A DNA stretch of 55,128 nucleotides, filler included, from Sphacelaria rigidula (Eukaryota), in NCBI GenBank assembly GCA_964200075.2. It is 5 parts of 5 records of this genome, joined end to end, with 100 filler letters (N's around TTAATTAATTAA, not from the genome) between each part and the next. Parts side by side here need not be neighbours in the genome. Positions count along the whole stretch, not along the records: positions 1 to 10,946 come from CAXNAA020005640.1; 4 more parts are not named here. One strand, written 5' to 3'. Below the pieces are notes generated by a model. The model did no database searches. It had not been told where the DNA came from and saw nothing but the letters and a program-made list of their open reading frames with translations. The position numbers and the translations under genes were made by a program. Shown here piece after piece: positions 1 to 44,183 of the stretch. Positions within the stretch are counted from its first letter, which is position 1. Each line of letters begins with the position of its first letter.

Positions 1-170
1 AGCAACGGTTGTTTTAACAGGCCTGTGGTGGAGCAATAACGCTCATCCATACTGTCTGACACCGTTTGGGATCAAATACAAGCGTAACGCAAGTGTGGAA
101 GGATGACCGACACACATATGAGCCTCGTTTCTCGTGCAACCAAATACCCCCCCCTATCGTAGGGTGACTC
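1..170. mobile_element. MITE family A, right part (truncated by window start)
   Basis: Similar to 33566-33735 and 43696-43864. Ends in CCCCCCCTATCGTAGGGTGACTC, the inverted complement of the GAGTCATCCTA(C/T)GATAGGGGGGG left end of those copies. Confidence 0.8.
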
Positions 171-2284
171 TGATGCAGTTGCAAAGGGCAATGCTATGTT
201 GTCCTCAGCCATCGTGTTACCGTTACGATAGTCTACCGGTGAGACAGGCGACCCTGTGATTGTTAAATGCGGGGTATCACGACATATGGACACTCAATTA
301 TTCCAAAACTGGGTCGTGACCTTAAATTATACCCTCTACAGACTACCGGTTGATTGAGTTGTTACTGCGCTTACGAGGAGGGCGGTATATAATGACTGTA
401 TTGACTGTTCACAGCCCAGTACGAGAATATCGCTCAACTCCTTGACTCTGTATTCAATCTAGTAATGCAAATGTAGTGTGCTTTTCAAGGAAGAACAAAA
501 AGGGTCCTTTGGGATTTTAGCTATTATACTAGGTGGTACTGTATTATTGATCGATTTGCGCACACGATGCGGGGCAATTGAGAGAGTTTGGAGAAACTTA
601 TCATGGGCGTACACCACATCAAGCAGACCCATGATGATTGAGTGATTGTACGGTGGTTTGATATCACTGCATGTGATTAGCTTCACGACGCAAGCACTGT
701 AATAAGACCGGTAGTCGGGACCGGATGTTCCAGTTCATTCACTGAAGCCAGCTACGCTTAGAATGTGTTGTTATTTCAAATCATTACGTGCAGCCACAAA
801 GCCGCCGCGTGTTGTTATCTGTCTTGAACCAGCAGTTTTAGAATGCTGCCTCGTGTTGAGTAGGGTGTTGAGGAGGATTGCGGTTAGCTTTTAGACAACG
901 AGAGCAGGTCATCTGTTGAATGAACATCAATTTCACGCAGTGGTGTAGAATGTCTGCGTCTTTAACTAAAACGCGTTGTGACTTGTCTACAGTGAATCTC
1001 TAGTGAATCATTCATTACCCAGGTTACCACACATGAGGCATTTACCCTACCTCCTGGTCAGGGGGGGTAAACACTGATAGTCGGAATGCTTATTGTCAAG
1101 AAAATGGAAGTAACCTCAACGTGGTTTTCACTGCCAGGATAGCTTGAGGCTGTGGGATATATTTCTATGATGTTGAATAGACCAGACCCAACGGTGTATT
1201 GTAGTTAGTTCATGGCTTTAAATACATGAAAGGATCGTATCCAAATGTACTCAAACACTGACCATAATCTTGTTTTCTCTTCCGCAATATTGATTCGACG
1301 ATTCCTGGGGAGGCGAATTATCTATCCAGCAGTCATGGATCCCCTAAGTCTTCCACCCATGGCTGCGTTGATCACCTCAACACTGCCGCAATTGGGCAAC
1401 TACTGAGAGTGTTGCAAGCCAAAAGACCTGCACAAGGCTACCCGACGAACGTTACCCCCCCGATTCCCGTTGTCTGTCTACTCTGCACGCGCTGGCGACC
1501 AACTACAAGAGTTGATTGTCTAATCGGGCATGTTTTGACCACCTTCAGGTTCTTCTGAATGGGGCTTCTGGTCTTGAGGGTCTACGGCCTTCACGCATCA
1601 TTTTGCCGAAATATATATCAAAGAGAAACCGACAGAGTGGTTGGCTGGTGCTGAATAACGAGAGTAATAATTGAGGAAATTATGCACTTTGCTAGAATGT
1701 AAGCCAGACAACGTGTGAATGAATTGGAAAATTCGTGTGATTTCGTAGTATGAGTGCGTTCTACAATAGGCTCACCCACAAACAGGCAGGAAATTACTAC
1801 ATACAGGAAATGAAGGAGGGCGGAGGTCCAAGATAGCAAGACCGTGCTTGTTCGAACAGATTTATGGGAGCCATATTTTTCCCCGCGTGCTCTTCCAGCT
1901 TGACAGGAGGCCGAAGCCTCGGAGAACATCCTTGATTATTCCCCATTTAGGGAAATCCGAGCCGAATGCTCACATGAACCCGTCCCGCGCGATCAATTTT
2001 TTTGTCATGCTTTCCTGCTTTCCGGTTTCCCCTTGTTCACCTTCCCTTTCTGCTTTCCACTCTTGTACCATGATGGAAAATTGAGGCTGTCAGTTTTATC
2101 CCGTTTCACTGTTGATGGGTTAAGGACGTTTCTCACCCCATTCTGCCCAACGCGCCCACGAGACGGTGAGGTACTGTGTCGATATTATGAAATACGTTTG
2201 ACTGATGTTATTATATCCATGTGGCATATGTGTGCAGGTTATCGTTTCAAGTACCGAATAGCCAACTCGAAAATCGGCAAAAGG

Positions 2285-4537
2285 ATGAGCGGAAACCCCC
2301 TGAACCCGCAAGCCCAACCCTTCTACCCATCCGGGTCGAGTCAACAGCCTCCAGTGCAAGCCCCTCAGCAGCAGCAACCTTTTCGTCCCGGTTCAGCAAC
2401 AACAGGCTGTTGCACCCCCTCAGCAACAGTTTGTTGGACCTGTTCAGCAACAGCAGGCTGTCGCACCCTCTCAGCAACAGTTTGTTGGACCTGTTCAGCA
2501 ACAGCAGGCTGCCGTACCCTCTCAGCAACAGTTTGTTGGACCTGTTCAGCAACAGCAGGCTGCCGTACCCCCTCAGAAGCAGGCTGTTGGACCGCTTCCG
2601 CAGCAACAGGTGGCCGCACATCCTCATCAGCAGGTTCTGCAACGGCAACAGCAAGGGCACTTTGGCCCGATGCCTCAGCATGTCCCGCCGTCTGTTCTTC
2701 CGCCTATTCAGCCGGCAATGCCAGTTTCTGTGCCTCAGGGGGCTCATCCAGCCCCGGCCGCTGGAAATTTCACTCATTCCCAGCTGCCACCTCCACCGCC
2801 GGTGCCCCCACAGTGCCGCTCGAGGTTTACGGTCGCGCCAGACTCGGTTAGTCTTTACTGCAGTCCGTTCTACGGATCTCTCAATCTCTCTGGTGTAACC
2901 CCGGCAGCCCAATCTAGGCTGGATGGGCTGACTCCGTATGGGGCCACGTACCCTCGTGTTCCCGCACCATACCCATCTGATCACAACTGGTCGGCTGTAC
3001 TGAAACACCAGCAAGCGATGTCCCGTCAAGCAAACACTTTGGCCAAGCTTCTCGGTTCCAAAGACACCGACACCATCGTTTACAAGGGACGGTCTGTAGA
3101 TCACAATGCAGAACTAACTTATCATAACTCCGCGGTCTTGTTTGCAAACCATTTTCGTACCACGCTCGTGGCGTATGAAGGGGGGAACTGAAGGGTCCCT
3201 ACTGATGCACACGTGACCAGTAAGCCGCTGAAACCACAAGCGGATCAGTACACAGATAGACGCAGGGATCTTCTGATGCGTGTAATGCTGCCTACTTCCG
3301 CGACGTATACGGAGATGACAAGTTGGAGGGAGAACCAGATCTCGGTACCTGGCGTAACAGGAAATTTCATACACGTACGTTTTGGAGACGTAACTGCTCT
3401 GGAGTGGCTCCGGAAGCTAGTAGCAGAAGAAGCGAGGATGGGTGTAAGCCATGCACAGACTGCACTGCACAACATGAAACTACTCAAGAATGAGAGTTAT
3501 GTAGCAGCCGCTCATCGGGTGATACTGTTAACTATGGCGGCCACGGTTTCTTCAACCTCTCCACACCTCGCAGAGGAGGAACACTTCTGGAGGACAGCCT
3601 CGGAAGTTTTGGTCTTACAGATGTGCAGCACTTTCCATAAGTTGGTAATCCCCGACCAGACTGCACAGATCGTATCACATACGTTACTACAAACACCCAA
3701 CAAAGCCTTAGAGGACGACATCCGATCCTTACCAGTTCACCATGGAGACCCGTGCAGCCCCGATATGAAGGAGCGAGGGCACCGCACGTATCATATATAT
3801 ATAGTGAACTTGTATCGGCCATTCAACGTCACTGTGAATGTTCTAGAACATCTACTGAGGCGATGAACAGTATTACTGCAGCATTAACACGCCCCGCACC
3901 CAAGCCCATATACGCGGGGTTGGTAGAAGTTAAGAAGCGACTCATGCAAGATGCAGAGGAAGAGAACCAAGGGCAAGACTTCGCCTCCGCTGCTGCCTTC
4001 AGCAACCAAGAGGCGTCAACACCACGAGGCGGCACGCCTTTCGGGACATCCTCATCTACTCGTGGAGCACAGAAGCGCCCGTGGGAAGAATCAGCTAAGC
4101 CCACCAAGTGTGTCAATTTTGACACGCGAGGAAAAGCACCGGCGACCGGGTTCCTCCCTGCCCGCAATGCGCCCAAGGGGGAGCGCGACATCGCCATCCG
4201 TTTGCTGGGGGGGTGTTTCAACCACGCATATGGACGAGACTGCAGCAGCAAGGACTCAGAGGACGGCTGCAATTACTCCCTTGATCAAGATCGAACTCCC
4301 TTCGGTCATTACAAGCAACCGGAGCAGAAACAAGCAAAGCCCAAGACGAAGAGGGACAGGCTGATGAGCCTACGACTGGGGGAGTTGTTCGGGTTGATTG
4401 ACAGCCAGTACGAAGATCGGGGGTTCAACCACGGGCTGGACAAACCAGAAAGCGGCGACGACAGCGGCGACGACGAGGAGGGAGTCGAGATGGTTGATGC
4501 ACTGAGCAACCGTTTCGACGCCACAAGCGAGGAATGA
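2285..4537 (+). pseudogene. gag: gag-like ORF (disrupted)
   Basis: ATG at 2285 (MSGNPLNPQAQPFYPS). Frameshift near 2385 into the Q/P-rich repeat frame (continues as ORF 2610-3191), in-frame TGA at 3189-3191, ORF 3213-3866, then a frameshift near 3795 into ORF 3752-4537. Lies directly upstream of the protease. Assigned mainly by position; no capsid motif recognised. Confidence 0.65.
2391..2594 (+). repeat. Four tandem 51-bp units encoding about VQQQQAVAPPQQQFVGP
   Basis: Units start at 2391, 2442, 2493 and 2544 (gttcagcaac..ttggacct), in frame with ORF 2610-3191. Confidence 0.95.
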
Positions 4538-4543
4538 GGGTGA

Positions 4544-7500
4544 GCCCTGGGACCGCAGTCCCCGGGGGACAGCGTGTACGTAGATAGTTTATCAGCAGTA
4601 AAGGGTGGCGATGCACAGCAACTGTGGGTGCAAGCTAGAGTTTGGCACCACAGCAAAAGTAGCCACGGCTTACCAGTAACGGTGTTACTGGACACCGGGG
4701 CGGGGGGGGAGGGGGTAGCTATGCATCGAAGCAGTGGTGGAAGTCGTTGGTGACGTGGGGTAATATCACAGGCAAGCTGCAGCGACAGGGAGCAGGAGTT
4801 TTGAGGGCAGCGAACTCTAGTGACAGCCGGACGCCACCGATGAAGATTCTAGGGTCAATGGTAATCCCGATTCGGTTCCACGCAAAGGATAGAATAAGGA
4901 AAGTATGGGTCAGGGTGGTCGATGGATTGCCGTACGGATTTATTTTGGGGGCAAGTTTCTTTAGAAGGAACAAGAGTACACTGTCTTTTGAAGGTCGATC
5001 AGGATTTCGACCTTCGCCGAAGGCTCCGTGGGTAAGGTTCGTGTCTAATGGTTCACCAAAACTCGGAGCTGTTGACACCGATGACCTCAACGGCCAAGGA
5101 GATTTGGCAAGGTGGAATCTCTTCTGTGCTGTCAAGCCAAGAGCGCTCAGTGACGATCCGACGGGGGTGTTGTCGGAAGAGAGCGATCTGGCAGCATGGG
5201 ATGAGGTGTGGAAGAGCCTTGGAACGGCGTGGGAAGACGACGCTACACTTCAGTGGCTTATGCGGCTGACCGAGGACGCAAGGGTAGAAGACTTCGTTAG
5301 CGAGCTAGTTCCAGGCTATGTGCGAGGTCCTCAACCGCAGGAACGGCAACTCGTGTTGATCGAACCTCGAAAGTTGTTCGATTTAGATGAGGAAGCCGAG
5401 ATAGGGGTAGCCAGGGGAGTGCAGTGGTGGGACCCACAGTTACCGTTAGTATGTAAGGTGGTCAACACGGCCAAGAGTGCTCGCCTAGTGAAGAAATGCA
5501 TAGTAGTGGCGAAGGTGGTGGCCGTGAATGTTCGAGATCGCAAGCGGTTGCAAAATCTTCATGTGTCCGACACGGGTACCACGCTGAAGTCGAGGCTGGA
5601 GGATCGAGGGACTACGCCAGCCCCTCCCCAACCGCCGCCGGAATCAACGAAAGTGGAGAAGGACACAACTGGAGCCGCAGGAGTAGATCTCACGGAGGCG
5701 AACATGGCCAGTTGGGTCCGGTGCAGAAGACCCAGCTGTTATCCGTGTTGAGAGACTTCAACCAAGCAGATCTGTTCGCGGTGGACCCCAAGCGGGTGAG
5801 AGCAGCGCGTGGGGAGCCATTGCATCTACGACTGAAAGATCCCCGGTGCCGACCATTCGCTGCTGGTACCAGACGATACTCGCCGGAACAAGAAACTGCT
5901 ATACAAGACGAGATCCAGAAACTCGCGGAGCGGGGGATCATTGAGCCGTCGACGTCCGCATGGGCAGCTGCTTGCGTCACGGTGCGGAAGAAGGACGGTA
6001 GTTTAGGGTTGTCTCAGGATTATCGTGGACTAAACGAACTTCTCGAGTCGTATAGTGGTGGTTTGGGGGATATGCAGACCATGTATAGTGGCCTAGCGGG
6101 ATCCAAGTACTTTACGAGTGTGGATTTAGCGAGTGGGTTTTTCCAGTTGGAAGTGGCGAAAGAAGACCGACACCTTACCGCCTTTCGCGATGCAAGGGGA
6201 CACTTATGGCAATATCAACGCTGTGGATTCGGACTCAAGGTACTACCCGCGACATTCCACCGAACAGTATCTGAAGCGTTGTTGTCGGCGCGAGGTGTCA
6301 AGAACTGGTTGGATGATATCTTGTGGCCTAGTGCGACTTTCGCCAGCCACATCACGGGGTTGAGAGTTGTGCTCTATTGCTTGCTGAAGGCTGGCCTCAC
6401 TGTGAATTTCCAGAAATCACAATGGTGCACTCAGCAACAGGACTTCGTAGGGATGACGATCGACGCGTCGGGAATACGACCTTCCCAGTCTAAGATTGAA
6501 GCCATCGCCCGGTTGAGGGAGCCACAGGGGGTAGAAGAGCTAAGGTCGTTCCTAGGTATGACTGGATATCTGCGGAGGTACATGAAGGGGGTACAGTAAC
6601 ACGGCAGCACCGCTCACGGACTTGCTGCGTGACCCGAGGTTCGCTTCCAAGCGAGCACGGAGGATGAAGATTCCGTGGGGAGAACAGCAGCAACAAGCAT
6701 TCCTAGACTTGAAGAGCGCTCTGATGTCATATCCGATCTTGGCGTACCCGGATTGGAATGAACGGTTTGTGCTACATTCAGACGCTTCAGAGTTCGCAGC
6801 AGGGGCCGCCCTGTCCCAAGAGGCGGATGAGAGGGAATGGGTCATCGAATACGCTAGTCATAGATGGTCGCGAGCAGATGAAGAAAGATCAGCATCAGAG
6901 AGAGAAGTGGTTGCTGTTTTGTGGTCCGTGGAACGATTCAAATCGTACCTTTGGGGGCGAGAGTTTACGCTGGTTACGGATTGCAGTGCGTTGACATGGC
7001 TGTTTCGTAGTCAGAACTTGTCGCCTAAGTTCCACCGGTGGGCGCTAAGATTGATGGAGTATGATATGGTCCTCAAGTGGAGAGCTGGACGCGAACACCA
7101 GTTGCCGGATGCCCTGTCTCGGCTGCAAGGGAGCCAACCTCGGGGAAGTGACATTGACGTGTCATTCCCTGACGATGATACCGAAGCTGGACCCGGCGGA
7201 GGAGGAGGACCGCAAGGACTCAAACTGGACGGAATGTTGTTAAAGGAGTTGGAGGCGGAGTACCCGAAGGAATCCGCGGATGTGATGGCATTGGCGTTTA
7301 AGGAGGTCAGCGCGTTGTATCCACCGGAAACGAGGAACGGGGTTGACCCAGAGAACACTGTGGCAGGATCGGTCAAGCAACGACCCCCTGCTTTGATTGT
7401 ACATTGTGGAGGCGGGGGAAGCATTCTTGCCGCACAGAAGTTCTTGAAGGTGGTGGCAGCTACTGATACAAATTGGAAGGCGCTTGATTGTGTCAGAATG

Positions 7501-10337
7501 AACCAAATTGTGAGGGGAGTGAAGCTGTTACGTACGACTCCAGGGCGCCCTTCTTTCCACAATTTGGTGGAAGAGGTGCAACCAGGAGTGCTGGTAGGAG
7601 ATACCACTAGGGTTACTTCCGTTGATAATAGTGCGGGAGAGTTGGAATCGGCAGATGGTGTCCGAGAATTGGTCGAGTCATTCCTCTCCTCAGTCCCGAC
7701 GACAACACTGATCTTGAAAAGTACGGGTGTGATGGTACACTCTCCGGGTTGGACGGAGAGCGTAGCCCCGTTGCTGCACAAAGCCGGATGCTGCGTTGAG
7801 CAGGCTTCTATCTCAGCCGTGCAGGTGGGTCCCCGTACAGGAAGCGACGGACCTATGTGGTCGCTCTGAAGGCTGGCAGGCAGGTGGAAGAATCACTACG
7901 AGCATGGAGGCAGCGAGTGGAAGCGTATGCTATTACCTGCCCCTCGTTGGGCCAGCTCTTGGGGCGAACCGGCACCTATTTCTTGGAGCCTACGGGGCAA
8001 GGCAAGGCTATTCATAGTTTCGATGATCCGATGCCCAGGTTAACTCGTTCTCGGCTGATGAAAGGGAAACCTCGGCGCGACGACTTTACACCCCACGAGG
8101 CGGACGCGGGGGTATGGGAGGAAGCAGTAGAGTTGAAAAGAGTCGACTTCGTCAGAGTCGCGACCACCCTCGACCACTACGAGACTCCACCAACGGTGAA
8201 CCCCGATGCTATGCTAGATCTTGAGGCTAATTTCGTTCATCCGTGGATGTTAGGGGTAGTCTTATCAAGCTTGGAAGCGGAAGGTTTGTTAAGCTTGACT
8301 CGGATTAAGAGTGAGGACGTAGGTTTAAATGCACCAGCTGCTATATGGCCGCATGAAGATGAGTTGCCAGAGACGTGGGGAGCCGCAGTAACTCGCTCTT
8401 CGGTTTCCGAAGCGGAACATAAGTTGGACCAGGACTTTGGTGGGGGGGAGGCCTCGGCTGGGGAACCAGTACCAGGTAAAGGTAAACCCAGAACCGTTCT
8501 CGAACAAACGCGGGCGATCCTGATGGACAAATCACAACTCGTGTCATAACAAGAGCGGGACTTCCGTCTGGGACCCATCAAGGATAGGTTGAGAAAGGAG
8601 TCTAAGGATGAAGGAGCTAGCAAGAGACGGGATGCGTATGTGCTAGATGAGAATGATCTTATATGGCATACCTCCCCTAAGGAGCCAGCCAAGTTGGCTA
8701 TCCCACGCAGCTTAGTGCCAGGGTTGCTGGCGTGGGTGCACACTACGCATGGGCACGCTGGAGTGATGAGGACGACTGCCGTAGTCAACGCACGGTACGA
8801 ATGGCCTGGTCTTTTTGTTGATATTCGCAAATACGTGTTATCTTGTGGATGTCGTCGACGCAAGCGTACCAACAGTTACACCCTAGCGATGCGGCCTGCT
8901 CGATTTCTGCGAGCATGGGAGGTGTGAGAGATGGACATATCGGGCATGAAGCAGGTTTCTGCCTCAGGTAACAGGTATTTGTTGATCATCGTGGACCGAG
9001 CAACCAAGTTTCTCTTTGCTTCCCCATTGGCTGCCAAGATCGCGGTACCCGTGGCGAAATGTCTACTGAAGCTCTTCTTGACGTTTGGGGTACCCTACAT
9101 TTTGAGGAGTGACGCTGGGGGGGAGTTCACGTCGGAGGTAGTGAACCATATATGCCAGTGGATGAAGGTGAAACTGGACCATGGTCCGGCAGAGCACCCT
9201 CGGGGTCAAGGCACGGTAGAGAGGGACGGAGGATGGTTGCACGACGTTCTGGCCGAGCTTTGTAAGCAATGGTCGAAATGGTGGGATGAGTGCGTAGACC
9301 CCGCTGTGTGGGTTCACCGTACTACTCCCGATCCTTCATTACCTAATAACCCGACTCCATTCAAGCTACCTTTTGGGCGCGAACTACGCACCCAAATAGA
9401 CGTTGTGTCACCTGAAGCGGAGTCTCCACCGTTGAACAACATGGTGGAACAACAACGCCAAAACCTGAAGGAAGTTCACGAGCTGCTGATCCAACGCCAC
9501 AAGCAAAGGGAAGAGGTAGGATTGGCTAGAAATGCCGAGCTGAGTCGCCAATCGGTGGGGTCGCGAGCTCAGGTAGGAGATTTGCTATTAATAAAGGAGT
9601 CCGACAGCTCCCTTGTACACGAGGATGTGCCGACTAAACTCGTGCACGACTTGTGGACGGGACCATGGACGGTGCAGCAAGTGGTGATACCCGGTCTCAG
9701 CCTTAAGGTCAGTATGCAGGGACGCAAAGTACGAGAACGGACGGTGTCGGCAGCCAATGTGAAGAAATTTCATGTGCGCCCTGAACAGCTGCGACACCCG
9801 TTTCCGGACGAGTACTCTCAGTTAGCATGGGGGGCTGATCTGGGTTTGGCTGAGGGGATCGAGGTCGTCCCACAGCCGTACACATTGACAAATAGGAAAG
9901 TGGTGCTAGGAGCAGGATCGTCATGGGAGTGGGCCTATCGAGGGTTATTTCATGACGGAGCTGAATCTCATTGGCTTTCTAAGGAGGAAGTGTCGGACAG
10001 TTTCACTGGGTTGCAGCTGGACGTATTTCATGCTTTGTGGGAACTATATCACCCGCAAGCCAAACCACGCCCATCTGTTACGCCATCTCGAGCGGAAAGA
10101 GACTCTATTGCTCGGGATGAAGCTTTACGACAGATTCCTCGAGGGACTAAAATCCGTAAACAGTTCGTAGACAACTAAGGTGAGCAGCAGGAGTTCGACG
10201 GAGAGGTGTTCGATTTCCGTCAACCGTATTACCGTATCAAGTATGAGGATGGAGACTGGGAAGAGATGACGCCGTTGGAGGTGCGACAATATACGGTGAA
10301 TGGGCAAGATACCGGAACAGTTTCAGGGTCTAACTGA
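4544..10337 (+). pseudogene. pol: pol polyprotein (PR, dUTPase-like, RT, RNase H, DNMT-like, IN, chromo-like, Tudor-like), disrupted
   Basis: Joined from ORFs 4747-5751, 5496-6599, 6622-7869, 7857-8549, 8589-8927, 8931-10178 and the in-frame continuation to TGA 10335-10337. Frameshifts near 4705 (G run), 5705, 6590 (G run) and 7830. In-frame stops at 8547, 8925 and 10176. Protease D-T-G at 4691-4699, RT WLDD at 6306-6317. Confidence 0.93.
7381..8280 (+). other. C5-cytosine DNA methyltransferase-like domain inside pol, catalytic residues degenerate
   Basis: Motif-like segments in canonical order: I LIVHCGGGGS, II VVAATDTNWKALDCVRMN, IV position PGVLVGDTT, VI position TLILKST, VIII LHKAGCCVEQASISAVQVG/PYRKRRTYVVALK, IX ELKRVDFVRVATTLDHY, X LEANFVHPWMLGVVL. 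Confidence 0.72.
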
Positions 10338-10603
10338 TGGAGAAGAGACCGTTCCTGCACGGTGTTTAAATTCCCTGCGTGGTCTAACCCGGCACAGCAG
10401 TCAACAATACAGCGGACTCCCCCCGAGCGGGATGGAATCGTTCCTGCGCGGTATGGAAGTGCCCTACGCGGTCTAATTAGCAGAACGGTTATTCAGATCG
10501 ACGGCTACACCAAGACGCCGGGTACTCTGGAAGAGGGACATGGTATCGCGGCGATCCATCGTGTAAACCACGTTCAGTCCCAGGGTTTTTCAATCCCAGG
10601 ACT

Positions 10604-10612
10604 GAGGGGGGG
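10604..10612 (+). promoter_or_regulatory. Polypurine tract of the retrotransposon
   Basis: GAGGGGGGG immediately followed by TGTTACGG, about 270 bp after the pol stop. Confidence 0.75.
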
Positions 10613-10946
10613 TGTTACGGATCGCAGCGTGGCGTGATGGAGATAGTACGATGATGGGTCGTCGGTTTCAAAACGACACTATGCCCGGAGGGCTGATTGC
10701 GGGAACTAGCTAGTACCGTGGTCAGGGGTGAAGGCGGTGTAATTCGTCAAAAGACGGCATACATAAACATGCCTCTTTATATCTGATCGGGTTCGGTTTT
10801 TACAAGAATCGATCCAGCTGGCACCCTGGGATTCACTCTCTTTTGAGTGCTGAGGTAAATCCCTCCAAGTGGAAAAAGAAATCGAATCAACCTGAAGAGG
10901 TGATCAAGATAGCGTGACGTTCGTCGTGTATCGTTCTGCCTTGGAC
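10613..10946 (+). repeat. 3' LTR (partial, runs off contig end)
   Basis: Starts with TG directly after the polypurine tract. No matching 5' copy found in 1-2284. Confidence 0.65.
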
Positions 10947-11046
10947 NNNNNNNNNNNNNNNNNNNNNNNNNNNNNNNNNNNNNNNNNNNNTTAATTAATT
11001 AANNNNNNNNNNNNNNNNNNNNNNNNNNNNNNNNNNNNNNNNNNNN
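10947..11046. other. Artificial contig linker
   Basis: N44-TTAATTAATTAA-N44, a six-frame stop spacer. Confidence 0.98.
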
Positions 11047-16700: not shown

Positions 16701-19698
16701 CGCTTCTTTGGCGGCCCAGCCTGTAGCTGTAATAACGGAGGGGGTATTATTTTCTGGAATTTTCCCCAGTATGTTGCCCAAGGGGGAGTGAAGCGGCCGC
16801 GAAGTGCTGGGGACCCCAAGATAAGTTCAGTACAGTGCTACACCAATGTCCTTCGAAAACCTCGGTGAAATATCCGATGGAGGTGGCAGCCCACAAGAAA
16901 ACTTTAGATTTTTGGAGGGAAAAGGAGAGGGATATCCTTTATCGCCAAATAGTCAACAAGCGATAACCGTACAACGCTCTCGTAGAAACAGTACAAGAGC
17001 CTCGTGCAGCGGGGGAAAGTTATGGACCAGATAATACCACAGTCAGGTCAGATTTTGAAATTCTGCAGTGTCGGGCTTTCAGCGTTTTACACATCTACGT
17101 CACAGAACGTGAGTGTCATGTCTGTGGGATCTTTCTGGCAACCACGCACAAACAGTATTCCTCACAACGCACACACAGGGCAGTCAAGAAGTTATAATAA
17201 GTTCCTAGTAAATTTCAGCACAAAATGTTCTGTCGGAAAGGACACGCTGTCGCCACCCGGTGTATTGAACACTGGCATGTTTTCTTCTGTTCGCTTGTGC
17301 CTGTGGACTGTGGATAGCAGCCGCAGGTTTCTGCAGAGAGCAAGCCACCCTTTTTGATAGACAGACAAAAATGGGGTGGACTTCAATGAATTGAGATTCA
17401 TCAATCGTAATCGTTCGCGTGGTTGATAAGCTGGTAGATTGGATGCTGTTGAGCAAGTTGTCCATTTTTTCTTTTGGCAGAACCAACACCTCGCCCCTTA
17501 GAAGTGGCACCCATGCCTCGCGCGGAGCCTCGGCCGGTCCGTTTACACGAAGCATGCGTTGCCGGTCCATTTTGTTGGCGTAGAAAATCACCCCGATGAG
17601 GTCGAAATTATTTGCCCCAGAGTACACCAGGCATGTACCGGTCCCCCAGAAACTACGGACTCATCCCGAGGAAGGAAAGGGGGTGTTGTTCAAAGTATGA
17701 CGAAATTGAAAAACGAAATACTGTACACTGTAACTCATATAGCGTGCACGCGATTGGTGAAACGGCCGGCTCCGTCCCCCTTGACGTGTGTGACAAATTC
17801 CAAAGGTGCCTGGGTTCTTTTACGCCAATGATCGCCTTCAGCAGCTGACTTTCGAGGAGCTCAGGGCCAGCGCAGGCGGGGGAAAAGGGGGGGGGTTCCT
17901 GCCGGCAGTAAAACAGATTGCGAACGTGGCAGCTTTGCCGGGCATCGTGAAGGTCAGCGCGCGAACAGAGTTACGGAGAACAAAGTTGACCACTGAGCCC
18001 ATCACACAGGCGGTGCCGACTTCTGTTGGGCTCACGTGAGAGGCCAATTCGCAACACAAAATCACTTGTGGTGACTGTTCGTGTCGTTCGCGACATTTGT
18101 GCAGGATATCCATATTCTGCCGTCCAACCTGATCCAAGCACAGTATCCGATATCAATCATGAACCCGTAATACGACCAAGAATGTTCTCGAAGCCGGATA
18201 CTTCCTTTGTAGTTATCAATCCGCCGCTCCTGAGGAGGAGTGCGTAGTCTAGGGGAACGAATCAATCCGTCTCTCCCCCGGTTCTTGCCTCGCACTATAT
18301 TTTTGAGAAGTGAATGATGACCACTCCTGCAGCCCATCGGCTTTCATCGACCTTTATTTTTTATCATTGTCGTCGTCACGTGCTCGAGTTCTTCGATAAA
18401 GGAACCAAAACAGTGAGAGGAACACAGACAGAGACAAGAGACAGAAAAGATAGCGAGGCTCAACTATCGGCATACAATTATCCAACATCTGTTTGCCCAT
18501 TGGAGTACGACGGGTCGTTGGTGAACTCTGATGACCATCAAACTTGTATGTGGTGGAGCATCTTATACCAGACTCAAAGATGCTCTACTGAGATATTGGT
18601 ACATCAATCGTGCAGTAACCGTTGCAAAATTTCACAGGTAACATACACATTTACCATGCTGGGAACTGTGGTTGTTTGGTTAATCATGGCGTTGTTGTAA
18701 TCCTCGCAACTCGGAGCGTTCATGGAACAATGTCCGCAGAGATCTCCCATCACACGCGAATTTCAGGTGGCAAAGCGACGATTTCGGCATAATGTGTGAG
18801 AATTGGGAATCAAGAAGGCTAGGATAGGGTCGGCGGCGGCTCACACATGCCTTGCCTTCAAGGAGGAACACTCAAAGGAGCAAAACACCGTGTTAATAAA
18901 ATAAAAAAATGTTCAGTCCGCGATTAGCACGCGACACATGCGACTTGCGAAACAGCACGACTGACATCTTCAGTACTTTCAGAGACGAGGAACATTGTGC
19001 GCTCATAGTTCCCTTGGTCGTCACCTATCGGCTCTCTCGACCCGGGCAACCGCTCCTGTACTCCAACCCACCCCGCTTTTGTCATGCACGTACGTGAACC
19101 GAATCGGATAGTGTTTATTCTGCCTCTCTCGTTGTGGACAGGGGTCGATAGGACTGCCCGATGTGCACTCCGGCTACGGGTTCGCAATTGGAAATGTGGC
19201 CGCTTTCGACATGTCTGATCCCGATGCGGTTGTATCTCCAGGTACGACCATTTGCCTCATTTGGATAGCTAGCTGTCTGTAGAGGTGATCTTAACCGTCC
19301 AATATATCGTTGTCGTTGGACGCTTGCTTTCGTTTTCACTGACGATATTTTCCGCCGCGTTCGTACCGCTCGTCCGCGTTGCCAACGCCCCCAGTCCCTT
19401 TGGCCTGCTTACGACTTGTTTAATTTATTGTCGCTATCTTGCCCGGCACATTTGTAGGAAATTCTCCCCTCAAATTCCGCATCCTTTCCTTTTCAATACG
19501 TGCTCTCATTTTCCTTCCCTAGGGGGAGTAGGGTTCGACATAAATTGCGGCGTTCGATTAGTCCGGACGAATCTGTCATTCGAAGACGTTCTGCCTGTCA
19601 AGGAGCACCTGACTCAGTCGCTGTTCGACCACATCCCCGTGGGCGTGGGTACCAAGGGCATCATCCCGATAACCGCCGCAGATCTCAACGATGCGCTG
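13723..19698 (+). CDS. RTCB: RNA-splicing ligase RtcB (tRNA ligase catalytic subunit), first four exons; 3' part not on this contig
   Basis: Exons 13723-13827 ([21 protein letters not shown] donor), 17806-17952 ([29 protein letters not shown]), 19142-19241 ([27 protein letters not shown]) and 19523-19698 ([26 protein letters not shown]). Phases join in frame. PDVHSGYG and DINCG are RtcB active-site motifs. Confidence 0.96.
14535..14634. mobile_element. 100-bp piggyBac-like MITE in RtcB intron 1
   Basis: Flanked by TTAA (14531-34 and 14635-38). Imperfect TIRs cccttagaccgcga / tcgcggtcaaagga. Confidence 0.65.
14745..15385. repeat. Two tandem foldback units with about 80-bp inverted arms
   Basis: 14745-14827 is the inverted complement of about 14957-15037. 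A diverged second pair lies at about 15088-15170 and 15303-15385. Confidence 0.7.
15609..16461. mobile_element. Non-autonomous TIR element
   Basis: Ends gaccaacttttatggcagtcacgaatctcgat and atcgagactcgttgccataaaagctggtc are inverted repeats. The terminal motif is shared with 53407-53866. Confidence 0.7.
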
Positions 19699-19920
19699 GT
19701 GAGATCAGTGTTCGTTTTTTTTTTTTTTTATTTTTTTTTTATGGTACTTTTTTGCCCTGATTTTTTCGAGTTTCGTCGCGTTCAGTGCCGTGCATGATGG
19801 AGTTGATTTTGATGTGTCCGGGTACGTCTATCACGAGACCACGGCTGGACCCCTGGGGGGTCAGTTAAAGTACGACAATCAAGCAATCAATCATCAAAAG
19901 CCAAACACCCTACGTCATGC

Positions 19921-21992: not shown

Positions 21993-22092
21993 NNNNNNNN
22001 NNNNNNNNNNNNNNNNNNNNNNNNNNNNNNNNNNNNTTAATTAATTAANNNNNNNNNNNNNNNNNNNNNNNNNNNNNNNNNNNNNNNNNNNN
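21993..22092. other. Artificial contig linker
   Basis: N44-TTAATTAATTAA-N44. Confidence 0.98.
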
Positions 22093-27700: not shown

Positions 27701-28785
27701 ATGCATCGATTTTGGCGATCATACATCTCTCTCAGGCGGAGCAATCGCAACACATTCGGGTGAGTGAAGGTCTTGCGGCGCCATGGTATGTATACTATAT
27801 TGCGAATCCAAGTTAACGGATCCTCCACGGACAAGGAACATGGCGACCCATGTACACAGGCTTGGAAACACATGCACGGATCTCCAAACATGTTGCAACC
27901 AAGAAATGACACCATGTACCAACCTCGGCTTATCGTAGAGCCAAGTGAATCCTTCACAACACACAAGGTACACTTTTTTGCAAACATCAAGACAATCACA
28001 AGCTACACACAAGGTAGATCAAGTAACGATACGAAACGAGGCTTGTTGTAGACAGCAATCAACCACCCACTCACCTGAATACAGCCCAGATCCTCAATTC
28101 TGAACCGCTGAAGGATAGCACCCCCCCACACCTGCCCAACTGCCCTGGTCAACTGTTTCATGATCACATTTACTACGTTTCTCAGATCCGTTATTTAAGA
28201 AGGAGTTTCGAAGCGCGGAAAGCTCAAAGCGTATCTATCAAGATCAGCAGCCATCGTTCAGTAGCGGCTCACCCCGACGGAGAGTCATCCTTTTAATATT
28301 CTCGAAAGAAGTCAGCGTATACGTTCAGCATTTATGGTCACACTAAAAGAAAAAGTAAGTGAAAATAATGCCGATCACGGGGGAAAAAAGGATCCTAAAA
28401 CTTACGTACGCATGTTCTACGGTGGGGGACGCCTCTATAATACTGCATGTACTTGAGCAGGGCACAACTACAACTGAACTGTGAACAACGGTTATTACGG
28501 AACTTCGAGTGCACGATTAGGGCTGTGTTGCTCAACGTAGTGCATTATTCTTTCCAGTTTCGAACATCATCACCGTCACTTTTGGCCTGCAACCCTCGGT
28601 GTAGAGAAGCGCCATCGCTGTGTAGTACAAACAGCAGTGGCCCCATCGGAGGTACTCCCAGTTGGACCACGATAGCATATTGTCCTGTTGTATACTGGTA
28701 TATTGAACTGTAGAGTAACAGCTAGTTCAGCACATACGTAGCACACACATACATCAACTTGGTACATAACCGCACAGTCAAACCT

Positions 28786-30461
28786 ATGCTCTCGGCAGTT
28801 GGACGAGCCGCGGGACGGTCAGCGGCGTCAAGACCCGTTTCGGGCTCGAAGGCAGCGGCGATTGCCGCTGCTGCTCGCCAACAACAGCGATGCGGCTTCG
28901 CTGCTGTAGGCAAGAATCACGAGATATGGCGAGATGACACCGGCGCGCACACGGACAACACCCCAAAAGTCAAGCGCAGGGACGGTACCTTTGGAGATAT
29001 CGATAAGACCCGCGGGTTCATCGATTACTATCGGAACCCCGACCCGTACCGTGACCCTCTGGAGCGCGTGTTTGACTGGGGTGAGATCAATGACCAGGAA
29101 GGGCACGATGAGGTAGAGCGCACGGTGCAGGCGGCGCGGTGCATGGACTGCGGTACCCCGTTTTGCCAAACGCACACTGGGTGCCCCATTAACAACTTGA
29201 TCCCGGAGTGGAATGAACTTGTCTTCAAGGGTGCGTGGAAGGACGCGATTGACAACCTCCACAAGGTACAGAACAGTACAGAACGGTTACGGTAAAGGTT
29301 AGTGGTGATGCAAGGCGTGCTCAGCTACTAGGATGATGAAATGGTGGACAAGTTGTGTTATGCCCACGGGCTTAGTTGTGTGCTACGGTGTACTTTGGTG
29401 GCTGAACTAGATTGTAATTTCATCCTGACTGAACTTGGCGTGTTCCATATCGTCTCATAAACAAATATCTTGAAACATGGCGTCAATCAGGCAAAACATG
29501 TACATTCCCGTAGCTCTGTACGTTCCTGCTTACGCACTTTGTATTGTAAATAATGTACTCTCTAGCCGTGTCCTGTATGCTCAGTAAACTTTTGTGCTTC
29601 TTGTAGCGGAAACGTGACGCCGACCAGCACCTGATACGGCAATCTGCTGCGAGATTTTTGCCAGCACATTCGCCGTACCTCATAGTCTGGGGGCTGAGAC
29701 AGTTAGTTGCTAATGCGCTGGCATACTCGGAGAGCAATCGGGTGTTGTGTTTCAAGAGATGCGTGCTGTGTCCTGCATATGCGATATACTTCGTATTTAT
29801 TTAGCTGGTCGTGCGGCAGCAGAAAAATACGAACGCATGTACGATATTCGCGAGGGAAACGTTATCTAACCGGGCCTATCAAGTACTCTGCCGTTCTGTC
29901 TCCATGTCCATGTGTCATCTAGACTCTAATGATGCTCGCTCTACGTCCCCCGCTCTCAGGAGTCAGCCGGTCTCCGTTTTCCCCCGTCGTGGTCCCATAT
30001 CGGGCCCGAGTACGACACCAACCGTGTATACAAATGTATGATTCGGTCGTATTACACGGTGCAGTACTTCACATCTAGTACAGTGAAGTAAATCAGCACC
30101 TGCAACCAACCGCCAGAAAACACCCCGCTTCTCATGAGCACGAGTTTCATCCCGCACCTTAAGACACCCCCGGAATACTTGCCTCGTGAATTTGAACGAT
30201 GACCAACAACAGACGAACAACTTCCCAGAGTTCACTGGGAGGGTTTGCCCTGCCCCCTGCGAGGGCGCGTGCGTGGCGGGCCTTATCGACTCTCCCGTTA
30301 CGATCAAGAGCATCGAGTACTCTATCATCGAGAGGGCTTGGGAGGAGGGATGGGTAGTGCCGCGTATTCCTACCCACCGCACGGGAATGAACGTGGCAGT
30401 GGTTGGCTCCGGTCCTGCGGGACTCGCCGCCGCCGACACGCTCAATCAAATGGGCCACAAG
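28786..30461 (+). CDS. gltD: Glutamate synthase NAD(P)H small (beta) subunit, GltD-like, with N-terminal presequence; first two exons
   Basis: Exon 28786-29265 (..[41 protein letters not shown]) and exon 30213-30461 ([43 protein letters not shown]): two Fe-S Cys clusters and the FAD GxGxxG motif, phase-0 GT-AG intron. Later exons not found. Confidence 0.93.
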
Positions 30462-32492
30462 GTGATTTTTGGTTTTGACGAGGTTTTCTTTTCTTGTGTT
30501 TCAAAAGTTGCGGACGGTATTCTGTGTATGAGATTGTCGTCATCGTCCGTCGATGTGTTCGAACGCATTTGGATTGGTGAGTCAAGTTAACGTCCAGTTT
30601 GTTTGCTCCGTCCGCGGCAAGTACGTACACGTAAAATACGGAATGTCGAACCCACCCTGGATTGCGGTGGTACGGGCTCGTTGTGCCCCGTACTCTGCAT
30701 TCTTGCACCATGTTTGTGAGATAACCTGGCTTACATTGTCTAGCATTCGGAAACAGGAAGTTGAAAACGCTTTGTTCTCGATGTACGAGAGTGAAAAGTA
30801 TGGTAGATTCAAGAGGACGGGTAGTTTTACGACCACTGGCAGCCGACCCCCAGACCAAGCGTGCGGCTACTGTCTGCAACCCTGAGTTTTTCGTAGGTAG
30901 TGGACAGCTGTAGCGCCGTCATGTATAATGTACTGCACAGCATGTTGGTGCAGTCTTGATCGTCGTTTTTACTTGAACTGCTCAATATCAATATAGATAC
31001 AAATCAGAGGAGTAGCGGAAAAAAACAATCAGCAAGTACTGCTCTACAGTACTCCCTGGTAGCTGAGTCGAAGTGGAAGTGGAAATCGGGCGCACTTCAG
31101 CAGCAGGCCATTTAATGGTACGCTGACGCAATGTTTCAGCTGTTTTCCTTGCCTACTTGTACCGTCAAGGTCCGAGTCCTGACATGTATATTGCATAGAA
31201 AGTGTTTCAGCGACATGTCCCCAACAGCAATACTGCACTTTTTGTACTGAAGTGTACCGTAGGATTAAAGTCTTACAGAACTGTCCCCGGAAATTGGACA
31301 TCGCCTGACTGTACTGCAGCGTAGAAAGTACAGTTGAGTGCAGCTTGCGTCACGTAGGCTCGTCCTCGCATCGGCAATGAAAGGGGTTGGATATTCCCTG
31401 TGTCAGTCGAGTGCTCATTCGAACAGAAGCGAGGGTGCTGTTGGACTAGTTGCTTGTACTGTGAGCTTTGCCGGCGTGAAACGATTGTGTTACGACAAGC
31501 CAGCACCGCACATACGAGAGATTCGCAGCTAACACACAAACACACACATACACGTTGTGGTCACCGTACGTGCCACTTTATCTTGGAAACCCTACAAGAT
31601 CAGATTCGCGTTGACAAACACAACCCACATCTGATGGAGCAACACTAGAAAGGCGCGAATATGATAAATGATGACCTCTCGGCGGGGAGGACCATGGGCT
31701 GAGCTGCAGAATCCTTCTTGCGCTATGTTTTCTTTTCATTGCGTCGCCACGTTGAATTTTGTTTTTCACACGAAGTAAGCTGGGAGTTCATGTCCAGAGT
31801 AATATTGCATGCGAGACCGTATTACTCTGCACCAGAGTGAGGTCGAAATGTAAGTTCCTTGGCGCGCACTATTGGCGGAAGATTTATCAGGCGCCTCAGT
31901 TTCTCTCCTCGAATAGTGCAACCTGCGCTCGCTGAGCTGTGATCGTTCTGCTTCACCTCCGTATATACGTCCGGGGGATGTCTAAACGCCTCCGTATAGC
32001 TTCTCTGCTCCCTGGAGCTGGGACCCAACGAGCTATCCGTGTGTCATAACTTAGCAGCAATGCTTCAGCAAATTTGGTGCAGTACGTATCACGGAGAAAA
32101 CATGACGTGTCGTGAAATTCCGCTCAAAATCGAGACATTTTCTGACTCGCGTGTGCATTATCTTCACGACCACTATAATAGTAGGGGGGGGTGAGCAAGC
32201 TTGCGCTTTCAATAGATGGCCAGCGAAAAAGGGATCCTCGAACGCGTCGATGCAATTCTCAACACACAAATGAGGAACATGTGTACACACACGCATGTAA
32301 TTTTTAGTTTTGTGAAGGTTCGAGGATGTGGCTTTTGTACCGTTGTCACTACCGTCCACCAAAGAAGTTTGTATTTGTCAATGGTGCTAACCTTGACCCT
32401 TTCATTTGATCATTTTTCACGTACTGTTGTTCCTCCCCCCCTCCTCCCCCTGGTCCGGCGAGAACCCGGCTTTGTAAAGGGCTGGACCCCGA

Positions 32493-33038: not shown

Positions 33039-33138
33039 NNNNNNNNNNNNNNNNNNNNNNNNNNNNNNNNNNNNNNNNNNNNTTAATTAATTAANNNNNN
33101 NNNNNNNNNNNNNNNNNNNNNNNNNNNNNNNNNNNNNN
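33039..33138. other. Artificial contig linker
   Basis: N44-TTAATTAATTAA-N44. Confidence 0.98.
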
Positions 33139-33488: not shown

Positions 33489-33735
33489 GAGTCATCCTAC
33501 GATAGGGGGGGTGGTATTTTGGGCCGTTGTTGCTCGAAATTTCTAGTCAGATCGTCGTTGAAAGCAGCAACGGTTGTTCGAAGAAACTTGTTGGGGATCA
33601 ATAACGCTCATCTATACTGCCTGACACCGTTTGGAATCAAATACAAGCGCAACACGTGTGTGGAAGGATGTCTGACATACTTATGAGCCTCTTTTTTCAA
33701 GCAACCAAATACCCCTCCCCCTATCGTAGGATTCT
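33489..33735. mobile_element. MITE family A copy
   Basis: TIRs gagtcatcctacgatagggg / cccctatcgtagga. Internal similarity to 1-170 and 43620-43864. Confidence 0.85.
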
Positions 33736-42600: not shown

Positions 42601-43486
42601 CTTCACAGCATCATACCAGCGCTAGGTCACCAAGTGTCATCGAATGTAGTACAAGCGACCACGTGTGCCTTGCTAGTACCGTACAGTACCGTATCACGTG
42701 AAATATTCGACTCGCACGCCCACCCCGTGAGACCCGATGGCACACTCACATCAGGAAAGAAGCCTCTCCGGACTTGGCTGAGCTGTTCCGGCTTCCCCCT
42801 TTCAAAAAGGGGGTGCATGTAACCGCCTGCCTCATTTCCCCTGACTAGCTTACGGAAGCCGTACAGGTTTAATTGCCTCTGGAAGCTCGAGTACTTGTTC
42901 TCTGCGTGCCAAAACCAAAAACACGCAACACACATGCAGGCAAACACATGTACGCTAAATGATGAGACTCAGACTCAAACCAAAACGGAGCGGTGTGAAT
43001 TGGCGATTGGGATCGTACAAGCACCAGCTACAAAATACCGTTTCGAGGAGGAACTACAGGACGATGCAAGGCCTTGAGCACATCTCGCATGAAAGAGCTC
43101 AAAAGTTGAAAACAACGCGCATCGCCAGGTTCACACAGAATCCAACAGTCCACGACAGACAGTACAGCACCGTGGCGGAGAAGTGACGAGCCTTCGTGCT
43201 CCGCTCCGCCTACACAATCACTTTTGCAGAGCCAACAGTCAAGTGTAGAGTACAGTAAGAGTAAGCGGATGAACAACTCACGCTTGAAAAACCTGGGCAT
43301 GATGTCTCGACAGAACCTCTCGGAGTCGGTGATTCGGAAGGCCTTCCCCGAAGCTGACCATCCTATGATGGATGGATCTTCGGTTTTCAAAATCTGGAAC
43401 AGACCAAGCGCGAACGCTTGGCCCGAACCACGCTTGCCGAAACGCTGCTCCTGCTGCTGTGGGGTACCAGACACCGGGGTTCGTGG
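36619..43486 (-). CDS. HSF-type DNA-binding domain transcription factor (about 1280 codons seen; start exon missing)
   Basis: HSF domain FALGLFQIL..IIGWSASGKAFRI..IMPRFFKQNKYSSFQRQLNLYGFRK..YMHPLFERG over exons 43486-43282 and 42901-42750. Further phase-compatible GT-AG exons proposed at 42506-41817, 41443-41336, 41121-39530, 39262-39130, 39069-38974, 38662-38582, 38202-38050, 37711-37526 and 37074-36619. The HSF call is firm; the downstream exon chain is a manual model. Confidence 0.85.
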
Positions 43487-43619: not shown

Positions 43620-43864
43620 GAGTCATCCTATGATAGGGGGGGGTGTTTTGGGCCACTTCTGGAACGAAATTCCAAGGCAGATCGCCGCTGAAATCAGCAA
43701 CGGTTGCTCGAACGAGCTTGTTTGAGATAAATAACGCTCGTTCATACCGATTGACACCGTTTTGAACCAAATACAAGCGCACCGCGAGTGTGGCATCATC
43801 TGACACACTTATCAGCCTTTTTTTTTCGTGCGATCACATACCCCCCCCTATCGTTGGGGATGGT
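43620..43864. mobile_element. MITE family A copy
   Basis: TIRs gagtcatcctatgatagggggggg / cccccccctatcgt. Similar to the other two copies. Confidence 0.8.
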
Positions 43865-44083: not shown

Positions 44084-44183
44084 NNNNNNNNNNNNNNNNN
44101 NNNNNNNNNNNNNNNNNNNNNNNNNNNTTAATTAATTAANNNNNNNNNNNNNNNNNNNNNNNNNNNNNNNNNNNNNNNNNNNN
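44084..44183. other. Artificial contig linker
   Basis: N44-TTAATTAATTAA-N44. Confidence 0.98.

Follow-up and report, generated by a model that had tools for sequence, protein, structure and literature searches.

Where does the pol gene of a brown-algal Gypsy retrotransposon end, and what does the tail of its integrase carry? Both questions arise in a 55,128-nucleotide stretch of DNA from Sphacelaria rigidula (assembly GCA_964200075.2; hereafter the window), in which a TAA codon interrupts the frame that leads out of a Ty3/Gypsy-type integrase. The window is a composite of five pieces of about 10.9 kb each, with spacers at the joints, and therefore no feature is to be read across a joint. The element lies in piece 1 (1-10946), where Pfam finds reverse transcriptase, ribonuclease H (RNase H) and integrase in the order of Gypsy elements. 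We consider it likely that this is a decayed Gypsy copy from a family whose intact members have an integrase tail made of a GPY/F barrel, a divergent chromodomain-fold (chromo-fold) module and a PTM/DIR17-type Tudor domain, with a presumed role in chromatin tethering.

A preliminary description of this DNA had read two peptides behind the integrase core as chromodomain-like and Tudor-like. Translation of 8550-10340 placed the GPY/F motif WTGPW at 9654-9668, the first peptide, YTLTNRKVVLGAGSSWEWAYRGLFHDGAESHWLSKEEV, from 9879 onwards, the TAA at 10176-10178, and the second peptide, GEQQEFDGEVFDFRQPYYRIKYEDGDWEEMTPLEV, up to a closing TGA at 10335-10337, all in one frame and exactly as described. 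We therefore took 9630-10334, read through with an X at the stop (residue 183), as the tail query (P0001). Scanned in full with HMMER, a set of 1.84 billion representative proteins yielded 534 relatives of this tail at E ≤ 1e-3, 32 of them at E ≤ 1e-30; the best 149 of the 534 were aligned with the window tail, giving 150 members. In the AlphaFold model (mean predicted local distance difference test, pLDDT, 83.4) three small β modules follow one another along the tail: a GPY/F SH3-like barrel, the chromo-fold module and the Tudor domain. The GPY/F module forms strands at residues 13-20, 24-30 and 34-40, its residues 3-48 match NdhS (Z 5.3) and the KOW domain of NusG (Z 4.7) in VIA structure comparisons, and 4 of the 150 relatives carry a Pfam SH3_Tf2-1 match. 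The segment that connects it to the chromo-fold module is conserved (mean top-residue share 0.55) and modeled at low confidence (pLDDT 51-65 in the domain model described below).

The segment behind the TAA is a Tudor domain, as had been proposed. Its 52 residues alone match Pfam PF21743 (PTM/DIR17-like Tudor) with an E of 4.1e-7 (30.1 bits, above the cut-off of 27.2), and residues 172-219 of the read-through tail do so with an E of 3.5e-7 (30.4 bits against the Pfam gathering cut-off of 27.2). The same profile matches 41 of the 150 alignment members at E ≤ 0.1. The tail model places strands at 174-180, 186-197, 200-205 and 210-213 along with a short helix, at pLDDT 96-97. In VIA, the best match of this part is the SMN Tudor (Z 5.5, root-mean-square deviation (rmsd) 2.5, 52 residues), followed by PHF19 (Z 5.2) and the BAHCC1 tandem Tudor, RDM15 and FXR1 Tudors (Z 5.0-5.2); a Z of about 5 is typical of 50-residue domains; although not strong alone, it agrees with the Pfam assignment. 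The coding sequence of the domain is interrupted by the TAA in this copy and intact in the family as a whole, where F179, G191, V193, Y/F196, P199, Y200, W201, R202, Y205, D207, G208, D209, W210 and E211 are conserved.

The candidate aromatic-cage positions of the Tudor domain, F179, F/Y189, Y205, D207 and D209, are conserved and their spacing fits the numbering of RDM15 (PDS5C), an Arabidopsis protein. According to PMC8184781, the RDM15 Tudor holds H3K4me1 through W616, Y623 and Y641, and its residues with Y-x-D-x-D-x-E spacing contribute to the cage, coordinate a lysine of low methylation state and bind a neighboring arginine. Because the window's Y205-E-D207-G-D209-W-E211 repeats the spacing of RDM15 Y641, D643, D645 and E647 (PMC8184781), the analogy suggests a ligand of low methylation state, of the Kme1/Kme2 type. 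We equated F179 and F189 with W616 and Y623 by a motif alignment of our own, not by computation. Overall, the two domains are alike as single barrels (Protein Data Bank, PDB, entry 7de9; VIA Z 5.0, rmsd 2.9, 55 residues, 18% identity). They differ in that a longer loop separates strands 1 and 2 in the window domain, and in that RDM15 is a host protein whereas the window Tudor belongs to a transposon protein.

For the segment before the TAA, the predicted structure argues strongly for a chromodomain-like fold, and this module is the new element of our finding. A separate AlphaFold (AF2) model of 9771-10073 alone, built on an 83-row alignment, reached a mean pLDDT of 81.6 with core blocks at 87-96. 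It contains two long strands (38-46 and 52-59) and a short third one, together with helices at 71-75 and 80-93, that is, the three-stranded antiparallel sheet packed on a C-terminal helix that defines chromodomain topology. When this model was compared with 48,161 representative PDB chains in VIA, 34 of the top 35 rows were chromo or chromoshadow domains (Z 6.5-3.8, counting the cpSRP43 and GEN1 chromodomain modules), and clearly unrelated rows began at Z 3.3. The best match was the Oxpecker chromodomain bound to H3K9me3 (7vrf; Z 6.5, rmsd 2.5, 59 of 61 residues aligned), followed by Chd1 (5.8), Chp1 (5.7), SUV39H1 (5.6) and HP1 (5.5). The exception, at rank 18, was the yeast ribosome/eEF3 entry 8ylr_v, in which the aligned stretch is presumably the chromodomain-like insertion of eEF3. 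A second VIA comparison, within Foldseek's top 1000 chains, gave the same fold class in all 50 rows: 47 were chromo or chromoshadow domains, including MPP8 (Z 6.3) and Rhino (5.8), and the other three were cpSRP43, eEF3 and GEN1. With the whole-tail model, five VIA rows fell on residues 70-143, namely four chromodomain entries and 8ylr_v.

The relatives indicate how the two modules travel together. Both are present (at least 80% occupancy) in 38 of the 149 aligned hits, the first alone in 48 and the second alone in 31, and the single-module hits are mostly fragments that start or end between the two modules. Across the 38 hits with both, the linker (median identity to the window 28%) is less conserved than either the chromo-fold module (46%) or the Tudor domain (38.5%). 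The most divergent members of this set are 26-35% identical (P0041, P0046, P0076, P0083, P0088, P0101 and P0147), and the tandem layout is therefore old. One relative of 464 residues, P0002, carries both rve and PF21743, and a marine metagenome contig, L002, has a single open frame through both modules that ends about 20 residues after the Tudor domain. Ends 10-25 residues past the Tudor domain are found in P0002, P0006 and L002.

Some relatives carry further modules. In the distant relatives P0076, P0083, P0088, P0101 and P0147, the C-terminal 90-130 residues after the Tudor domain contain another conserved module with the pattern G..[IVL].[YL].[FY]..GW..G.L...........F.V.F......L....Y....SW..L; no Pfam match at E ≤ 10 was found for it in the three proteins scanned (P0083, P0088 and P0147), and another small barrel, the third, is a possible reading of it. 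In P0046 this module is placed in the N-terminal part. Four copies of this Tudor type (F.G.V..Y..PYYKV.YEDGD.EE) stand in tandem in P0095 (637 residues), which has no transposon-like sequence apparent by eye and may point to the origin of the Tudor domain.

Several results weigh against this reading of the tail. Pfam Chromo (PF00385) matched none of the 150 alignment members at E ≤ 0.1, and none of 12 proteins at E ≤ 10, the domain alone included; the preliminary description's chromodomain thus stands as a fold and not as a sequence profile. The sequence profile of the whole tail, searched against PDB chains, found no chromo or Tudor chain, and that of the Tudor domain matched no PDB chain. 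The ESM neighbors of the 74-residue chromo-fold stretch all belong to Chromo/Chromo_shadow clusters at 0.85, below the tool's 0.9 line, and are a lead only. All VIA Z scores are below 8, a range in which a match can reflect a common arrangement. Foldseek, proposed as a check on both segments, gave no significant match to either model: for the domain model (best E 0.16) it listed the Chd1, Swi6, CHD6 and MPP8 chromodomains intermingled with chemokines, in which strand-strand-strand-helix is likewise the order, and for the whole-tail model its best match was the SETDB1 triple Tudor (E 6.9e-3), which may reflect the series of small barrels. At the TAA, a T>C change at 10176 is not among the 40 difference rows listed, beyond which there are 132 more, for contigs of four public sequencing runs. 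The assignment of the copy to the stramenopile lineage of the Ectocarpus element Gypsy-10_Ec32 is presumed from shared architecture and host group only. Finally, brown algae have little or no methylated H3K9 and H3K27, the canonical chromodomain ligands: PMC7784034 describes Ectocarpus transposons as marked by H4K20me3 and H3K79me2, with H3K9me2/3 barely detectable, and PMC13076208 describes H3K9 and H3K27 methylation as largely missing across brown algae.

These points bear on several alternative explanations. If the TAA were the real end of pol, the Tudor-like frame behind it would be a chance product or a separately captured fragment. The presence of the stop in this copy and the absence of T>C from the 40 rows listed speak for such an end, which is nevertheless already contradicted and highly improbable. 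Of the best 149 aligned relatives, 81 cover the positions immediately before the stop, and 70 of them read on by 20 residues or more into the domain behind it; the three closest, P0006 (the closest, 79% identical), P0020 and P0028, have a glutamine at the position of the TAA; and the stop, at residue 183, falls within the PF21743 match. The TAA is thus a private mutation of this copy and not the conserved stop that would have undone the earlier proposal, and the open frame of L002 agrees with this. A point change from CAA to TAA would be its simplest origin. Moreover, the TAA is accompanied by two other in-frame stops and two frameshifts, a picture of general decay. Least probable of all is that read-through or recoding of the TAA lets the window copy itself still produce the Tudor domain. 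The open frame downstream of the TAA is all that speaks for this; against it, relatives have an ordinary sense codon at that position, and the same frame has further stops at 8547 and 8925, besides the frameshifts near 6590 and within 7800-7869.

A more serious contender, which we hold to be a real possibility while leaning against it, is that the Tudor domain is the sole chromatin reader. The chromo-fold module would then be structural, dimerizing in the manner of a chromoshadow domain, or bind peptides or nucleic acids, and there would be no dual reading of methyl-lysine. The failure of the Chromo profile fits this explanation, as do the scarcity of H3K9 and H3K27 methylation in brown algae and the presence, among the structural neighbors, of chromoshadow domains and of chromo-like modules from cpSRP43, eEF3 and GEN1 that do not act on histones. 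In canonical chromodomains a cage aromatic directly follows the conserved glycine; the residue after Gly105, which corresponds to this place, is R, K or L in most relatives. Against a purely structural role stand the top structural matches, which are histone-bound chromodomains (7vrf, 3g7l and MPP8), and the aromatic residues at cage-like places: Y84 in 70% of relatives, an aromatic at position 103 (Y103) in 83% and one at position 107 in 62%. By motif alignment these three would correspond to the canonical cage, with the third offset by one residue. The proposed inspection of cage residues, made on the aligned relatives, found conserved aromatic positions at candidate cage places in both modules, with this offset in the chromo-fold module. 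Because H3K9 and H3K27 methylation is scarce in brown algae, canonical reading of H3K9me by the chromo-fold module is doubtful; it may read another mark, or serve dimerization or nucleic-acid binding. We regard as unlikely a bolder alternative, in which a cryptic chromodomain and an RDM15-like Tudor work as one two-module reader in intact members of this ancient Gypsy lineage of stramenopiles and recognize combined histone methylation states in hosts largely devoid of H3K9/H3K27 and cytosine methylation, and in which a methyltransferase-like insert upstream could be a third epigenetic module of a toolkit like that of the EpiLTRs discussed below. If it were true, the lineage would offer natural probes for the unusual chromatin code of brown algae.

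Returning to the reading that we prefer, in which a GPY/F barrel, a chromo-fold module and a PTM/DIR17-type Tudor follow one another at the end of pol in intact copies, the most probable role of the tail, by analogy with chromodomain-bearing integrases (MAGGY, chromoviruses), is to anchor the intasome on nucleosomes that bear marks. The Tudor domain, perhaps together with the chromo-fold module, would hold the intasome on nucleosomes of a particular methyl-lysine state, and this would bias the landing sites of new copies, as chromoviral chromodomains do. Histone binding, the ligand and the targeting of integration are all parts that we infer from such analogies. Integrase-fused reader domains decide where retrotransposons land; if the tail also carries a working chromodomain, the lineage would provide testable candidates for readers of repressive or genic marks in brown algae.

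The copy in the window is itself dead: its frame is broken by three stops, and there are two or more frameshifts. Reverse transcriptase and integrase share one frame and the RNase H block lies in another, which places frameshifts near 6590 and within 7800-7869; translation and the list of open reading frames (ORFs) give in-frame stops in the integrase frame at 8547-8549, 8925-8927 and 10176-10178. Because the TAA thus joins two other stops and at least two frameshifts, the copy makes no functional integrase, and because it is dead the observation is of value for the family rather than for the locus itself. Contigs of four public sequencing runs, aligned to the window, show that the family is highly repeated. 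Downstream of pol, the purine-rich tract GAGGGGGGG followed by TG suggests the start of the 3' long terminal repeat (LTR). We did not find a second LTR: 10338-10946 has no repeat anywhere in the window, and a 5' LTR was undetectable in piece 1. The features are collected in the table.

Table. Features of the retrotransposon copy and the joints of the window (positions along the whole window).
Feature	Position	Strand	Basis or remark
Reverse transcriptase (RVT_1)	in ORF 5457-6596		Pfam
RNase H (RT_RNaseH)	in ORF 6586-7866		Pfam
Integrase_H2C2	in ORF 8550-8924		Pfam
Integrase H2C2 zinc-binding domain	8700-8864	+	Pfam PF17921, E 1.6e-11, residues 51-105 of ORF 8550-8924
In-frame stop between zinc domain and integrase core	8925-8927	+	translation; decay of the copy
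rve	in ORF 8928-10175		Pfam
Integrase catalytic core (rve)	8931-9200	+	Pfam PF00665, E 2.3e-8, 34.7 bits against cut-off 32.6
GPY/F module (WTGPW), SH3/KOW-like small β-barrel	9654-9779	+	AlphaFold model, VIA structure matches
Connecting segment LRHxFxDE[FY]..AW..DLGL, conserved, one short helix	9780-9878	+	alignment, model
Predicted chromodomain-fold module, three strands and C-terminal helix	9879-10049	+	AlphaFold model, VIA, ESM
Linker, variable, partly helical (helix 154-168)	10050-10136	+	alignment, tail model
PTM/DIR17-like Tudor domain, interrupted by TAA	10137-10283	+	Pfam PF21743, model, VIA
TAA nonsense codon in Tudor, between strands 1 and 2	10176-10178	+	sense codon in relatives
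TGA, likely true end of pol, about 17 residues after Tudor	10335-10337	+	translation; ends of relatives
Polypurine-like tract GAGGGGGGG	10604-10612	+	read from sequence
Presumed 3' LTR	TG start at 10613, cut by spacer at 10947 (last base 10946)	+	read from sequence
Spacers	10947-11046, 21993-22092, 33039-33138, 44084-44183		N44-TTAATTAATTAA-N44

Piece 1 contains further repeats. Upstream of a gag-like ORF, a 51-bp unit stands in five tandem copies (2337-2642) and encodes a glutamine-rich repeat (QQQ.V.P). Directly after the pol stop, 10338-10480 contains the motif cgttcctgcRcggt...ccctRcgYggtctaa twice, in copies of about 40 nucleotides that lie about 87 nucleotides apart. In run X1 the summed word depth jumps to 113,567-325,907 over this stretch, compared with 3,603-34,781 in the tail bins 10160-10334, which suggests that the motif is common to many other repeats. 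Bases 1-163 recur at 33566-33730 (84% identity) and 43696-43858 (76%), in pieces 4 and 5, and are an unrelated dispersed repeat. The other pieces hold exon-like fragments of host genes within 19273-19794, 28726-30587 and 43031-43486 (minus strand), namely an RtcB ligase, a Fer4_20/Pyr_redox_2 oxidoreductase and an HSF-type DNA-binding domain; no chromodomain gene for an internal comparison was found in them.

Between RNase H and integrase lies an insert of about 400 residues, which occupies 7336-7866 and then continues in another frame to 8546. The preliminary description had attributed a DNA methyltransferase (DNMT)-like fold to the element; for a cytosine-5 DNA methyltransferase the sequence searches gave no support. 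The part at 7336-7866 contains a GxGGG motif resembling those that bind S-adenosylmethionine (SAM), around 7399-7524; its only Pfam match is Methyltransf_15 (E 0.22), and its ESM neighbors are class I SAM methyltransferases of the MTS/PrmA type (0.90). It had no PDB sequence match, and word-index searches at longer or near lengths returned no homologues. In the related polyprotein P0010, a low-complexity spacer takes the place of the insert. A SAM-methyltransferase-like fold is thus a weak lead from the sequence, and one worth following because LTR elements bearing methyltransferases have been described (10.64898/2026.05.21.726589).

How does this tail compare with known systems? The preprint just cited describes LTR elements with an adenine methyltransferase between reverse transcriptase and integrase, one such clade including an ochrophyte, and "EpiLTRs" that combine methyltransferases with chromodomains. 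These EpiLTRs/DAM-LTRs resemble our element as LTR retrotransposons that join reader and methyltransferase domains. They differ from it in that the window insert is weakly methyltransferase-like, has no detected homologues and sits in a decayed copy; the text-search listing of the preprint contains 'Tudor' zero times. Chromoviruses and other chromodomain Gypsy elements, such as MAGGY and Chronos, likewise carry a reader-type module at the integrase C-terminus after GPY/F. For the MAGGY chromodomain, 10.1101/2021.11.30.470311 gives tethering of integration to marked chromatin as presumed, and the introduction of 10.64898/2026.05.21.726589 also states such tethering. In contrast to theirs, the window's chromo-fold module escapes the Chromo profile and is followed by a second module, the Tudor domain. 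PMC12477816 reports the Ectocarpus Gypsy lineages as phylogenetically separate from, and unrelated to, chromoviruses, so that the chromovirus analogy drawn in the preliminary description holds for mechanism only and not for kinship.

The closest known system is found in Ectocarpus itself. PMC12477816 (Genome Biol 2025) describes four Gypsy lineages there, three with putative C-terminal chromodomains and one, Gypsy-10_Ec32 (Repbase synonym Gypsy-10_ES), with a C-terminal Tudor and a homologue in Tribonema minus. Its supplementary table lists Gypsy-10_Ec32 at 11,528 bp with 636-bp LTRs and 87 copies, one of them full-length, and with a frameshift that disrupts gag and pol. The Tudor half of our finding is therefore already published, and PMC12477816 presents that fusion as the first in any transposon. 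The passages of 10.1101/2021.11.30.470311 on reader domains fused to transposon domains name Chromo and PHD, and not Tudor, and full-text literature searches for Tudor-bearing transposon integrases turned up no further paper. Gypsy-10_Ec32 and the window copy are alike as brown-algal Gypsy elements with a C-terminal Tudor fused to integrase, a frameshifted pol and many degraded copies. The passages of PMC12477816 on this lineage mention the Tudor alone, with no mention of a chromo-like module, whereas the window copy has a predicted chromo-fold module before it. If the tail also carries a working chromodomain, the element would have a tandem-reader integrase, not one in which a Tudor replaces a chromodomain, and this would change the division, as published, into three lineages with chromodomains and one with a Tudor.

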